UHGV virus genome: UHGV-0039782 | Reading direction: 5' to 3' (one strand) | Source of the DNA: a virus | Length of the DNA: 47,499 nt | Notes under the pieces: generated by a model | Told to the model about the DNA's origin: nothing | Seen by the model: only the letters and a program-made list of their open reading frames with translations | Databases searched by the model: none | Program-made: the position numbers and the translations under genes | Shown here: positions 5,652-9,144 of the stretch, piece after piece | How positions within the stretch are numbered: position 1 is the stretch's first letter | Layout of the letters: every line of letters starts with the position of its first letter

Positions 5652-6077
5652 TCAATCTACATCTGAAAGCAAGCCAAAATAGAAAAGCGTGGCTTTTTTT
5701 AGTTGCTCAGCTCCGTACGCGATAGCTGCGAACTTGCCTTCTTTATGCGCCCCCTCAAGAAATTTACGCTGGCCTTTTGATACCTGGGATTTCGTTCTAT
5801 CTTCTTTCTTAAGCTCCATTACTGCGCAGGAATGAGCGGCACCATTGCTTAGTATAATTACGTCGCTCACGCCACTTTTTACGCCCATTTTTTTTCTCTT
5901 TATAACGAACTGCGCACCGCTTTTTGTCCCGGTTTCATTTGGAACATGAAACCATATAACGTCAGGGAAGTGATAATCCATCCACAACCCATAAGTCATC
6001 TGTTCCGTTTCCTCTGAATTACACTCTCCACGATAACCACTATCAAATACCCATATACCGCTATCAAGCTGCTTCAC
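5652..6077 (-). CDS. VRR-NUC domain nuclease
   Basis: 141 aa; ...SDVIIL...ELKKEDRTKSQVSKGQRKFLE... matches the VRR-NUC D/E-K core. Confidence 0.5.
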   Translation of the reverse strand: MKQLDSGIWVFDSGYRGECNSEETEQMTYGLWMDYHFPDVIWFHVPNETGTKSGAQFVIKRKKMGVKSGVSDVIILSNGAAHSCAVMELKKEDRTKSQVSKGQRKFLEGAHKEGKFAAIAYGAEQLKKATLFYFGLLSDVD

Positions 6078-7695
6078 TTTGTTCTCCTGTGAAATCTTTG
6101 CGGTGGATTATGTCACGGCCTTTATCGTTGATACGATGCGTGATGCGTTTCGGCGCTTTAATTAATCCCGCATACATCATGAATTGCTTGGCGTTCTGGC
6201 ATTTCAGGATTTTCCCGGCCATTGACTTATCATCAAGGTGAGGGAAGATGGCCTTTGCCTTGAACATGTTTTTCATGTGAGTTGCACCGCCGTAAGGGTA
6301 GAAAACCTCGTTAGCCCAGCCTTCTTTGCCATCACAACGATTAATCCAGTAGCGATATAAAATTCCCTCTCCGTCCTTCGTCAACTGGACTTTGAAGTCC
6401 ATAACATCAGCCCATTCGTTGTCGGTATACGCCCGCTCATTCAGTGCCGCATTCGGATCGCGCAAAACGTGATCGCAATGTCGGCAATAGCGAGCAGTGG
6501 GGTCGTTTTTAGTGCCGCAACCATCATCAAAAATGCGGATTCCGTGCTTATCAAAACCGCAACGGATGTAACTGAAAAACTCCTCGCAACGACCATCTGG
6601 CGACAATGCATCCTTGCCAATGCAGCGGCGAGCATATGGACTGTTCATTGTTCCGCATTTTGGGCACGGAACCTGTTCACCACTGCGTTTTGAACGCTGC
6701 GCCTCAGCTTCTTCAAGAATTGGGTCTTCATACAGCTGACCAAGCTCAAACATCGTGCCAGAGAAATCAAGAACCAGATGGTCTTCTTTATGATACCCGG
6801 CATCAATTTGCTCCTTCTTCAGCAGGCGCATCCCGCGACCAAGCAACTGAACAAGAAGGGTGAGTGACATTATTTTTCGCAATATGACGCTTGTATCCCA
6901 AAGCGGGATATTGACGCCAGTCGTCAAGCAACCAATCTGGAAAACATATTTAATCTTGCCAGTGTATGCGTCTTTTAACGCCTTGCGTCTGGCTTTCTGC
7001 CCCATATCCTCGGTGACGATAGCATAACTTCCTTCGGGTAAATATTTAGCCGCCTCATGACAGTGCTTCTTGCCAGCGCATGTAATCAATACGCCATTTC
7101 TGTTTTTTGTCAGCTCCATAACCTTGAGCATGATTTTCTGCGTGAGGGTTCCTTGCTCAAGGATTTCTTTCTGCATCTGCTTTAGTTGTTCGGCAGTGAA
7201 ATCCTGTGTGCCATCGCTTCCTGATGCCTCAAATGCTGACAGGTCGTAATGCAAATCATCAATGTCATGCAGGCCAAAAATCGTTGGAACAAGGAATCCA
7301 ATATCAACAAGATATTTGGTGTCAATGTTTACTATTTCATTTTTCCAGTAAGCACCCTTAATCGAGTCGGTGCCACGAAACGGACTGCCTGTATATCCAA
7401 TAACAATGACGTCGTGACCGTATTTAGCCTTACATCTGCGGTTAAGTTCAGTCATGATGACGCCATATTGCGTTTCAGGACTTTCACTTATCACGTCCTC
7501 CCAGTTCATCTGGTGGCAGTTATGAGCTACGAATCCATTTGCAACAAAGTTGTGATGGGTAGGCATCTCTATATCCCACACCATTTCATCACCAATTTCA
7601 TTTATTGACTCGATTACTTTTGATTTTGTATTCCACGCCATCTTCCATGTGGTCAGTAATTCTTTTAAAAAACTCATCCTGCGCTTCCTCATCAA
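6064..7695 (-). CDS. intein C-terminal splicing segment (blocks F/G, ...VWDIEMPTHHNFVANGFVAHN|C) fused to SF2 DExH helicase C-extein with C-terminal zinc ribbons
   Basis: HN followed by Cys at residues 59/60; downstream helicase motifs (TGSPFRG, QIGCLTTGVN, LLGRGMRL) and CPKC/CRHC zinc ribbons; the frame is closed by a TAA three codons upstream of the first start. Confidence 0.75.
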   Translation of the reverse strand: MMRKRRMSFLKELLTTWKMAWNTKSKVIESINEIGDEMVWDIEMPTHHNFVANGFVAHNCHQMNWEDVISESPETQYGVIMTELNRRCKAKYGHDVIVIGYTGSPFRGTDSIKGAYWKNEIVNIDTKYLVDIGFLVPTIFGLHDIDDLHYDLSAFEASGSDGTQDFTAEQLKQMQKEILEQGTLTQKIMLKVMELTKNRNGVLITCAGKKHCHEAAKYLPEGSYAIVTEDMGQKARRKALKDAYTGKIKYVFQIGCLTTGVNIPLWDTSVILRKIMSLTLLVQLLGRGMRLLKKEQIDAGYHKEDHLVLDFSGTMFELGQLYEDPILEEAEAQRSKRSGEQVPCPKCGTMNSPYARRCIGKDALSPDGRCEEFFSYIRCGFDKHGIRIFDDGCGTKNDPTARYCRHCDHVLRDPNAALNERAYTDNEWADVMDFKVQLTKDGEGILYRYWINRCDGKEGWANEVFYPYGGATHMKNMFKAKAIFPHLDDKSMAGKILKCQNAKQFMMYAGLIKAPKRITHRINDKGRDIIHRKDFTGEQSEAA

Positions 7696-8661
7696 AAATA
7701 TTTACATAAAACATTTCGCGCTTTTTCGTTCCGCCAATGTAAGAATTAACTCGCGCTCCATTTAATCCAAGAAAATCATTCAATGCATTGGCAACTTCCC
7801 AACATTCATCCCCCGCGAACGCCTCGGTGTGAATGAATACCTGTCTGTACTTGCCGTAAGATATTGATGAATGACCATCATCACCAAAATAAACAGCCCA
7901 ACCAACTTCGTTTAACTCCCTGCATATCTTTCCTATGTCGTACCCATTTGCAGAGTCACCATATTTCTCAGCGTACCTGTCAAGTATCTTTGTGCATGAT
8001 GTTCTAACCTGAAACCATTTATCACCGAATCCCGGATTATCTCTTTCTCTGTATGCTGCATTAAGTTTCTTGAATCTTGCAGCTTTGCACAGAGCGTGAT
8101 CTTTATTTCCCATATTCCACGCCAGTCTGTGCGTTCCCCTTTTTGTGTTCTTAATCAGGCATCCATCACCAGCAAGAGCGGCGAGTATGTTTTGATGCAA
8201 GAAGTCATCAATAACAAGGCCGCTATCAACGGTTGAATTATGATGACCAGACCTAAAATCAACATAGTAACCGTAAGGGTTTTCCAGTAACGCACTCAGC
8301 CCTTTGCTTGTGTGCGGAAAAACCTTTTCGCCACAGCCACACTTGCACGAAGGAGCTTTGTCATAAATCTGTCCGACGAGCCATCTAACGACAGAGTCAT
8401 CCCAGCCTTTAGTTTTCCCGCTTCTACCCAGCAACCGTCTGAATAAAGTTTGTGTGTACTCGTGCATTTTATTTCCTCACCGCCTATTAATTTAACTGAT
8501 GATACACGCTTTATACCATTAGTAAATACTCTTTTTGGTTTGTGGTACATCCATTCGCCAGTAACTTCATCTAAGCACTTGATTTCTTTATTTATTAAAC
8601 TATCGTCATCAATTCTCACCCATCCATCACTCGTTAATATCAGTGCATCACCAGTCAAGCA
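7519..8661 (-). other. intein element inserted in the helicase DExH motif; 381 codons end to end, carried as three ORFs in two frames
   Basis: N-terminal Cys codon at 8659-8661; C-terminal Asn codon at 7519-7521 followed by the Cys +1 codon; both ends share a frame but an in-frame TGA sits at 8296-8298. Confidence 0.6.
7598..8467 (-). CDS. LAGLIDADG homing endonuclease ORF nested in the intein-coding region in a different reading frame
   Basis: two LAGLIDADG motifs about 100 aa apart (ILAALAGDGCL and AVYFGDDGHS); own ATG preceded by GGTGAGG; overlaps the Int-N ORF by 172 nt and the Int-C ORF by 98 nt. Confidence 0.7.
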   Translation of the reverse strand: MHEYTQTLFRRLLGRSGKTKGWDDSVVRWLVGQIYDKAPSCKCGCGEKVFPHTSKGLSALLENPYGYYVDFRSGHHNSTVDSGLVIDDFLHQNILAALAGDGCLIKNTKRGTHRLAWNMGNKDHALCKAARFKKLNAAYRERDNPGFGDKWFQVRTSCTKILDRYAEKYGDSANGYDIGKICRELNEVGWAVYFGDDGHSSISYGKYRQVFIHTEAFAGDECWEVANALNDFLGLNGARVNSYIGGTKKREMFYVNIFDEEAQDEFFKRITDHMEDGVEYKIKSNRVNK

Positions 8662-9144
8662 CTCATCCATAAGAACAAAGCGAGGGCAAAAATCGGAAAG
8701 CGCACCTTTAGAAAGAATATTACCTGAGTCGTCCTTCTTATCGAAAAGACCATTTATTATTGTTCCCTCAGTGCCAGCAATAAGCGGGTATGCCGTAGAC
8801 TTTCTGCCAAGAGCAGCACTAAAAAGTGAGTTTTTCACACTCAGATTCCATAGTTCTTCCGCATCCTGCTCAATAATTTCTGGCTGCCTTGCAATAACAA
8901 GCCCTTCCCACCCCATATCCTGAAAGCGTCGCGCAATCATAGCAATCATGATCGTCTTACCAGCACCTACCGATGCCGTCACAAAACTTGGTTTCGGTTC
9001 TCTGCCAAACTTGCGGATAACTTCAGCCGTCTTTTCATAAACCAGCCACTGATAAGGTCGAGGCTCAATTTCCCCTGTATGAACAACTGACCGCAATTTG
9101 TCTATATCCAACTCCGCAATCATTGCGTCGATTTTATGCGTCAT
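8296..9144 (-). CDS. SF2 helicase N-extein (Walker A GAGKT, motif II VLMDE) fused to intein N-terminal segment (block A CLTGDALIL, block B TSTHKL), ending at a TGA
   Basis: intein begins with Cys162 immediately after LMDE, so the spliced junction would restore a DECH box; the 121-aa Int-N part ends in a stop. Confidence 0.75.
   Translation of the reverse strand: MTHKIDAMIAELDIDKLRSVVHTGEIEPRPYQWLVYEKTAEVIRKFGREPKPSFVTASVGAGKTIMIAMIARRFQDMGWEGLVIARQPEIIEQDAEELWNLSVKNSLFSAALGRKSTAYPLIAGTEGTIINGLFDKKDDSGNILSKGALSDFCPRFVLMDECLTGDALILTSDGWVRIDDDSLINKEIKCLDEVTGEWMYHKPKRVFTNGIKRVSSVKLIGGEEIKCTSTHKLYSDGCWVEAGKLKAGMTLSLDGSSDRFMTKLLRASVAVAKRFFRTQAKG

Follow-up and report, generated by a model that had tools for sequence, protein, structure and literature searches.

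A phage helicase gene fractured by a predicted split intein and an out-of-frame LAGLIDADG homing endonuclease gene

The virus genome UHGV-0039782 (47,499 nucleotides, the whole stretch of DNA that was analysed and here called the window) carries on its minus strand, from 9144 to 6064, a superfamily 2 (SF2) DExH helicase gene that is interrupted by a 1,143-bp element. It is probable that the gene has been fractured by a split intein and a separately translated LAGLIDADG homing endonuclease gene, that the two intein halves trans-splice, and that the element homes. Few inteins are split in nature, and those that are serve as the main tools of protein ligation. LAGLIDADG enzymes are the type fused into most canonical inteins, and a long-standing hypothesis holds that bifunctional inteins arose by endonuclease genes invading mini-inteins. 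The original prediction for this locus proposed a fractured helicase with a split intein and an intervening endonuclease gene. The layout, the motifs, the insertion point, and the pattern of selection support that proposal, with trans-splicing as its predicted step.

The region consists of three open reading frames (ORFs; 9144–8296, 8467–7598, and 7695–6064), and the coordinates first proposed for them are exact. ORF 1 encodes a 161-residue helicase N-extein (8662–9144) that contains the ResIII/SF2 motif I region (Pfam ResIII, E 1.7e-7) and ends in FVLMDE. It is followed, as predicted, by 121 codons of the amino terminal intein half (Int-N; 8661–8299) and a TGA (8298–8296), giving an N fragment of 282 residues. 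ORF 2 (8467–7598) encodes the LAGLIDADG endonuclease of 289 residues in the −1 frame relative to the intein and closes with a TGA at 7600–7598. ORF 3 has a maximal extent of 7695–6064, lies in the same frame as ORF 1, and is preceded by an in-frame TAA at 7704–7702. Read from the ATG at 7677, it encodes the 53-residue carboxy terminal intein half (Int-C; 7677–7519) and a 484-residue C-extein (7518–6064), a protein of 537 residues. The C-extein begins at Cys+1 (7518–7516) with CHQMNW and contains Helicase_C and zinc-ribbon domains. The element is located directly before the Cys codon of the DECH box, which is SF2 helicase motif II. The endonuclease gene overlaps both intein halves, as had been claimed. 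Overlap 1 (8467–8296) is 172 nt read in two frames and encodes Int-N residues 65–121 together with endonuclease residues 1–57. Overlap 2 (7677–7598) encodes the endonuclease C terminus and the head of Int-C, and is 80 nt from the conserved ATG or 98 nt if the maximal ORF 3 is counted. The HINT core of Int-N extends to about residue 95 and is followed by a 26-residue basic tail encoded within the 5′ portion of the endonuclease gene. The Int-C head is the 17-residue segment MSFLKELLTTWKMAWNT, which lies over the 3′ end of the endonuclease gene. These dual-coded segments read KLLRASVAVAK... in the Int-N tail and begin MSFLKELLTTWK in the Int-C head. The downstream VRR-NUC gene (6077–5652, GTG start) shares its first 14 nt with the end of the helicase C fragment. 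The same 14-nt overlap is found in the intein-less Skatevirus homologue and represents ordinary translational coupling.

The two flanks of the endonuclease gene had been proposed to carry the intein blocks, and Pfam Intein_splicing matches both. The N fragment aligns with Intein_splicing positions 38–89 and with PT-HINT positions 1–87, and the C fragment aligns with Intein_splicing positions 102–155 (E 1e-6). Int-N contains Cys1 (8661–8659) within block A (CLTGDALIL) and the block B sequence TSTH (residues 67–70; 8463–8452). Int-C contains block F (VWDIEM; 7581–7564) and block G (NFVANGFVAHN; 7551–7519). Six lineages were compared: the window, Escherichia phage ES, the Ymer-group Pectobacterium phages, and three metagenome lineages (including aquatic contigs; one lineage is from the Joint Genome Institute). 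In each of the six the catalytic residues are retained: Cys1, the block B T and H, the Asp of block F, the terminal His-Asn, and Cys+1. The halves were joined in silico as Int-N residues 1–95, the last 34 residues of Int-C, and Cys+1. This construct scores 44.2 bits against Pfam Intein_splicing (PF14890), which has a gathering score of 35.8. The best sequence match of the joined halves is the Spl DnaX mini-intein 7cfv, with which they align end to end (E 4.5e-21). These features assign the window intein, on its sequence, to the class 1 HINT inteins: Cys1, TxxH, blocks F and G with His-Asn, Cys+1, and a complete HINT domain. It is not a canonical bifunctional intein in one continuous ORF, because stops close the intein frame and the endonuclease is read in the −1 frame. 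The split occurs at the canonical endonuclease insertion point of an intein.

Removal of the element in silico gives a 645-residue helicase (calculated mass about 73 kDa) with an intact DECH box. This product is identical at 626 of 645 positions (97%) to the intein-less helicase of Salmonella phage vB_CECAV_048 (Skatevirus), and the alignment is gap-free across the junction. The window junction LMDE|CHQMNW corresponds to LIDECHQMNW in vB_CECAV_048. The predicted spliced junction peptide of the window helicase is FVLMDECHQMNWEDVISESPETQYGVIMTELNR, and the intein-less vB_CECAV_048 helicase reads CTTATTGACGAATGCCACCAGATGAAC around the insertion site. The expectation that splicing would rebuild a DECH box is thus borne out for the predicted product, and the two fragments are probably rejoined as proteins. 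A two-piece helicase could instead work without splicing, its fragments held together non-covalently by the intein halves or by the helicase domains. There is precedent for such an arrangement in Aeh1 NrdA, which is split by the mobE endonuclease gene, and Dassa et al. (2009) cite fractured genes that lack functional inteins. We regard a non-covalent helicase as improbable here. Six lineages with 35–70% identity elsewhere have kept every splicing residue: Cys1, TxxH, the block F Asp, His-Asn, and Cys+1. The break also falls inside motif II (DE|CH), and an unligated insertion of 121 plus 53 residues would sit in the ATPase site.

The three-ORF layout and its frames (N = 0, endonuclease = −1, C = 0) were found in every split relative examined across the six lineages. 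The carriers include Escherichia phage ES, Pectobacterium phages Ymer and Amona, the three metagenome lineages, and three IMG/VR contigs. A megablast search with the whole region returned 166 phage records, all with a query coverage of ≤63%, which equals the extein fraction. The 1,143-bp insert on its own, searched with greater sensitivity, was detected at about 71% nucleotide identity in Escherichia phages ES and AN_ECEAS (Drexlerviridae, Braunvirinae) and in five Pectobacterium phages of the Ymer group. The three IMG/VR contigs are 95–97% identical to the window in the endonuclease. The four closest sequences, including the window, are 93–96% identical across the element and differ by 51–76 substitutions over exactly 1,143 nt with no indel. 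The protein identity among the six lineages is 35–70%, yet the frame relationship is identical. This predicted layout is conserved far beyond chance. A fused close relative was not found in an exhaustive profile search of 1.84 billion representatives, in which the matches at E<1e-30 were all stand-alone proteins of 124–304 residues. The word-search relatives of the endonuclease were likewise stand-alone in 16 of 16 cases (124–304 residues), with none fused. There was no contiguous close relative among the close matches that could represent an ancestor; contiguous inteins with related endonuclease domains appeared only at E ~1e-17 and in other host proteins.

These loci are misannotated in GenBank. 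In the GenBank record of Escherichia phage ES (L001, OR466728.1, 30372–33506), the N fragment is labelled 'minor tail protein', the C fragment 'putative single-stranded DNA binding protein', and the endonuclease 'hypothetical protein'. The Pectobacterium records label the pieces as a hypothetical protein, 'homing endonuclease, contains LAGLIDADG motif', and DNA helicase. Gene callers shorten the endonuclease to 233–236 residues, which avoids the overlap.

The intein frame of the window holds seven stops between Int-N and Int-C, at 8298, 8157, 7935, 7914, 7782, 7764, and 7704; the TGA that closes the N fragment is the first of them. Selection on this frame was evaluated by permuting the synonymous codons of the endonuclease gene and counting the resulting intein-frame stops. 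The six split lineages have 7–22 stops across the endonuclease gene, compared to expected means of 9.6–22. The observed numbers equal the neutral expectation and therefore give no indication of selection to keep the intein frame open in these lineages. The intein frame across the endonuclease gene is thus predicted not to be translated. The power of this test is illustrated by a more distant relative, L017 (1530–3594, a Logan SRR28714610 contig), which has a helicase intein at the same DE|CH site (...IVDE|C...HN|CH) and a −1-frame LAGLIDADG gene (P0037). The L017 intein frame has zero stops compared to 6.3 expected, a result obtained in none of 2,000 permutations. L017 is therefore a predicted contiguous intein overprinted by an out-of-frame, sense-strand LAGLIDADG gene. 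Set against L017, the neutral stop count of the split lineages shows that the split state of the window is settled.

These data also bear on the alternative raised in the original prediction, that two compensating 1-nt homopolymer errors in sequencing or assembly have disrupted a canonical cis-splicing intein. There are A5, T5, and T6 runs near the proposed error sites. Nevertheless, at least 12 independent assemblies, drawn from six lineages, agree in their frames, there are no indels among the four sequences that are 93–96% identical over 1,143 nt, the seven intein-frame stops occur at neutral density, and no contiguous close relative was found among 1.84 billion representatives. The sequencing-error alternative is refuted on these comparative grounds, and its residual probability is negligible.

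Each of the three proteins has its own predicted translation start. The endonuclease gene had been proposed to have its own Shine-Dalgarno site and ATG in a different frame, and it has a GAGG Shine-Dalgarno-like site (8478–8475, within the Int-N codons G-E-E), a 7-nt spacer, and an ATG at 8467 in the −1 frame. This ATG straddles two Int-N codons, taking its A from the third position of the codon that precedes the block B Cys and its TG from the Cys codon. The base that precedes the Cys codon is A in every lineage, though the Lys, Thr, and Glu codons used at this position could end otherwise, and the ATG is conserved in six of six. A clear GAGG or GGAGAGG site lies 7 nt upstream in four of the six, and L005 and L008 have weaker purine-rich sites. 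The Int-C start is preceded by a GAGGAAG Shine-Dalgarno-like site (7690–7684) in the window. The ATG at 7677 (M-S/N-...) is the only start conserved in all lineages, and GAGG or AGGA lies roughly 6–14 nt upstream of it in all six. Int-C therefore most likely starts at 7677 and has 53 residues. The earlier range of 53–59 residues stands at its lower end; the 59-residue form would start at TTG 7695, which is not conserved. The endonuclease residue encoded over the Int-C ATG varies between D, N, and Y, all with NAT codons, as preservation of the Int-C ATG in the other frame would require. Consensus scans for a promoter or a terminator belonging to the endonuclease gene gave nothing above shuffle expectation. 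A sigma-70-like site on the minus strand (8526–8499; TTTACT, 16 nt, TATCAT) lies about 30 nt 5′ of the endonuclease ATG, inside Int-N, and is uninformative. A group I or II intron or a structured RNA between 5900 and 9400 was rejected, because the region encodes HINT halves and there is no notable Rfam match (one chance match, E 0.6).

Programmed ribosomal frameshifts, first −1 within overlap 1 and then +1 within overlap 2, could also yield a contiguous cis-splicing precursor. The window has GGGAAAA at 8419–8413, a potential −1 slippery site of the canonical X XXY YYZ form, which is probably incidental. GGGAAAA or AAAAAAC occupies Int-N frame codons 81–82 in four of six lineages, and both overlaps contain homopolymer runs. 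However, the heptamer is absent from the Ymer and L008 lineages, and a shift at this site would delete the last Int-N strands (LKAGMTLSL). There is no conserved +1 site in overlap 2, and two efficient serial shifts would be needed to make an essential protein. The endonuclease and Int-C ATGs are kept in all six lineages, each with a Shine-Dalgarno-like site, that of the endonuclease being weak in two. We consider programmed frameshifting very unlikely. A −1 shift at 8419–8413 would fuse a truncated Int-N to endonuclease residue 17 onward.

The pattern of substitutions was examined in the single-coding and dual-coding parts of the element. The variability at codon positions 1, 2, and 3 is 0.38/0.29/0.52 for the single-coding part of Int-N and 0.32/0.17/0.56 for that of Int-C, values typical of purifying selection. 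In the Int-N frame of overlap 1 the values are flattened to 0.34/0.40/0.44, with a reduced wobble variability. Overlap 2 shows the same flattening and the same reduction at wobble positions, and no other segment of the element varies less. Among the close relatives, the synonymous to non-synonymous counts are 14:3 and 12:3 for Int-N alone and 21:12, 32:15, and 18:7 for the endonuclease alone. The excess of synonymous changes indicates that the endonuclease gene is maintained. The endonuclease MH..[TS]Q sequence is largely dictated by the block B codons of Int-N, and the Int-N tail sequence RASVAVAK is dictated by the endonuclease CKCGCGE module. Where the wobble positions of CKCGCG change, the corresponding residue of the RASVAVAK tail is always Val or Ala. 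Dual coding rules out the assignment of overlap 1 conservation to one frame alone. The substitutions suggest, in a small sample, that both frames are constrained in the overlaps. They also address the alternative that the locus is a decaying pseudogene, a dead, intein-invaded helicase with a function that is dispensable or provided by another helicase. Nothing specific favors this idea beyond a second gene of the replicative-helicase type (DnaB family) near the element in the L004/L005 lineage. Against it, the exteins are 97% identical to the intact homologue without gaps or stops, Int-N, the endonuclease gene, and Int-C are under purifying selection, and the arrangement has both survived deep divergence and passed from one host gene to another. 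There is accordingly very little chance that the locus is a pseudogene.

The endonuclease probably belongs to the I-SceI-like PF03161 family. It had been predicted to be of the LAGLIDADG type, and this identification held up. The protein contains two LAGLIDADG motifs, ILAALAGDGC (8188–8159) and WAVYFGDDGH (7900–7871), and in a family alignment of 14 sequences GDG (D101) and GDDGH (D196 and D197) are invariant. The family profile matches I-WcaI (6x1j; E 3.8e-6) and I-SceI (E 5.5e-4), and PF03161 appears in the precomputed annotation of 8 of 16 endonuclease relatives. An AlphaFold2 model has the LAGLIDADG alpha-beta-beta-alpha-beta-beta-alpha fold with a predicted local distance difference test score of >90 for residues 85–280. 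The top Foldseek matches of the model are 6x1j (I-WcaI) and I-SceI, with a probability of 1.00 and a template modelling score of 0.68 normalised to the target. Members of PF03161 are mostly free-standing or intron-encoded. The gene should not be read as a typical intein endonuclease domain that has slipped out of frame. A CxCGCG...GH module lies 5′ of the LAGLIDADG core (CKCGCGE in the window, 8347–8327). The window endonuclease has a single copy and larger free-standing relatives have two or three; the proteins with the module are P0034, P0035, P0037, P0040, P0045, P0052, and P0127. Pfam returns a weak DUF6527 match on the module, which may be a zinc-binding DNA-recognition module. Its repetition in the free-standing relatives suggests that the endonuclease is free-standing in ancestry rather than descended from a typical intein endonuclease domain.

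The identities of the element and of the exteins were compared between lineages. The window and phage ES are 69–71% identical in Int-N, the endonuclease, and Int-C, whereas their exteins are 39–48% identical. The relationship is reversed for the window and L010, with 75–78% identity in the exteins and 57–67% in the element. These discordant identities indicate that the element has a history different from that of its host genes, as expected for homing, and the element is probably mobile by this route. The last 26 nt of the N-extein (8687–8662, minus strand) contain 7 differences from the vB_CECAV_048 intein-less allele compared to about 2 expected from the gene-wide divergence of 7.7%. The first 27 nt downstream of the insertion have no substitutions relative to vB_CECAV_048. 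The upstream cluster may be a co-conversion tract or a target-site immunity footprint.

Taken as a whole, the locus would function as follows. A 1,143-bp mobile element would have inserted before the DECH Cys codon of a Skatevirus-like Salmonella/Escherichia phage helicase. Its class 1 HINT intein frame would be interrupted by the sense-strand, −1-frame I-SceI-like gene with its own Shine-Dalgarno site and ATG. Three proteins would be made: the N-extein with Int-N (282 residues), the endonuclease (289 residues), and Int-C with the C-extein (537 residues). The intein halves would associate, fold into one HINT domain, and trans-splice to release the 645-residue helicase with a restored DECH box. 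The endonuclease would cut the intein-less helicase alleles of co-infecting phages, and repair would copy the whole element into the cut allele. Several observations weigh against this mechanism. The window endonuclease alone scores 19.6 bits against PF03161, for which the gathering cut-off is 25, and the first 80 residues of its AlphaFold2 model have low confidence. Translation of Int-C would need to begin 80 nt within the endonuclease ORF. The conservation of the endonuclease N terminus, the Int-N tail, and the Int-C head cannot be assigned to one frame owing to the dual coding. A minor frameshift product is possible from the −1 heptamer in the Int-N frame of four of six lineages.

The layout matches that of the metagenomic fractured genes (gp41, NrdJ), as the original prediction stated, with Int-N and Int-C in adjacent same-strand ORFs and an intervening endonuclease gene. 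Fractured genes with split inteins include gp41-1, NrdJ-1, and IMPDH-1 (Dassa et al. 2009, NAR 37:2560) and AceL NrdHF (Hoffmann et al. 2020). As in the Dassa set, a DNA-metabolism gene is split into adjacent same-strand ORFs, Int-N ends one ORF and Int-C starts the next, and a free-standing homing endonuclease gene lies between the halves at the canonical endonuclease insertion point. The 3′ end of the endonuclease gene overlaps the start of the Int-C ORF by 6–69 bp in those genes and by 80 bp in the window. The phage origin is also shared with the cases of Dassa et al. (2009) and Hoffmann et al. (2020). The type of endonuclease differs: the fractured genes described so far, those of Dassa et al. 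and AceL NrdHF among them, carry GIY-YIG or Vsr-like (EDxHD) enzymes, whereas that of the window is an I-SceI-like LAGLIDADG enzyme. The term LAGLIDADG has zero occurrences in the text of Dassa et al. (2009). In both reports overlap is described only at the 3′ end of the endonuclease gene. The window gene has a second overlap at its 5′ end, where 172 nt are shared with Int-N in the −1 frame and the ATG makes use of the block B Cys codon. The gene that is split in the window encodes an SF2 DExH helicase rather than gp41/DnaB, and members of the window type occur in cultured phages and not only in metagenomes. From its sequence the locus is a fractured gene of the Dassa kind that differs by an out-of-frame LAGLIDADG gene overlapping both halves.

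Other inteins share parts of this arrangement. Gosselin, Arsenault, and Gogarten (bioRxiv 2025, 10.1101/2025.01.02.630785) described non-canonical actinobacteriophage inteins with out-of-frame or antisense endonuclease genes and proposed that a free-standing endonuclease gene invaded the intein. The window likewise has a homing endonuclease inside the intein region but outside the intein reading frame. Their inteins are contiguous and contain an endonuclease VII-like gene in frame 3 or antisense LAGLIDADG or Vsr-like genes; Gosselin et al. (2025) report no LAGLIDADG gene that lies out of frame on the sense strand and closes the intein frame. L017, with its open intein frame, provides the contiguous counterpart. 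The catalytic motifs of the window intein are those of 7cfv and of the class 1 inteins at P-loop nucleoside triphosphatase Walker B/motif II sites. 7cfv is a single 137-residue chain without an endonuclease domain, whereas the window domain is encoded by two genes with seven stops between them. I-SceI and I-WcaI, which are monomeric, intron-encoded PF03161 enzymes, have two LAGLIDADG motifs in one chain, as does the window endonuclease. It differs from them in having an N-terminal extension of about 85 residues (CxCGCG...GH) and in residing in an intein rather than an intron. Full-text searches of open-access papers and bioRxiv turned up no report of a fractured gene with a LAGLIDADG enzyme, nor of any intein from Skatevirus, Braunvirinae, or Ymer phages, and the Ymer genus paper has no mention of a split-intein arrangement.

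The nested endonuclease gene of the original prediction is present in the window, but it is only one of several layouts among the relatives. The endonuclease ATG of L017 is also on the block B Cys codon. In L015 (3001–5538) and L020 (2501–5261), the N-extein, Int-N, and the endonuclease form one in-frame fusion that terminates at the stop codon of the endonuclease. Int-C and the C-extein follow as a gene of their own, which starts 12 nt downstream in L015, where the host is a helicase, and overlaps by 8 nt in L020, where the host is a DnaX clamp-loader. P0084, P0086, and P0112 are contiguous inteins with related endonuclease domains. We tentatively suggest, with less than even confidence, that the window family and these relatives could be natural intermediates, ordered in a series, that link a free-standing LAGLIDADG gene to the endonuclease domain of an intein. 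The first proposed state would be an out-of-frame gene within a contiguous intein frame kept open by selection (L017), and in the second the out-of-frame gene would close the intein frame and force trans-splicing (the window and five other lineages). The third would be an in-frame fusion of Int-N and the endonuclease with a separate Int-C gene (the L015 helicase and L020 DnaX), and the fourth the fully contiguous inteins P0084, P0086, and P0112.

The locus adds a Cys1/Cys+1 split intein of 121 plus 53 residues (core about 95 plus 35), with putative splicing activity, from cultured phages that are available (Escherichia phage ES and the Pectobacterium Ymer genus). The dual-coded Int-N tail and Int-C head may have been selected for bringing together the halves of a split intein that is new and open to engineering. 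Misannotation of the pieces, together with overlaps that defeat gene callers, means that the arrangement is probably under-counted. A LAGLIDADG gene that stands alone and out of frame, and that has fused and half-fused relatives, bears on the hypothesis for the origin of bifunctional inteins. If the proposed series is true, it would be direct comparative evidence that bifunctional inteins arise or come apart by endonuclease-gene invasion.

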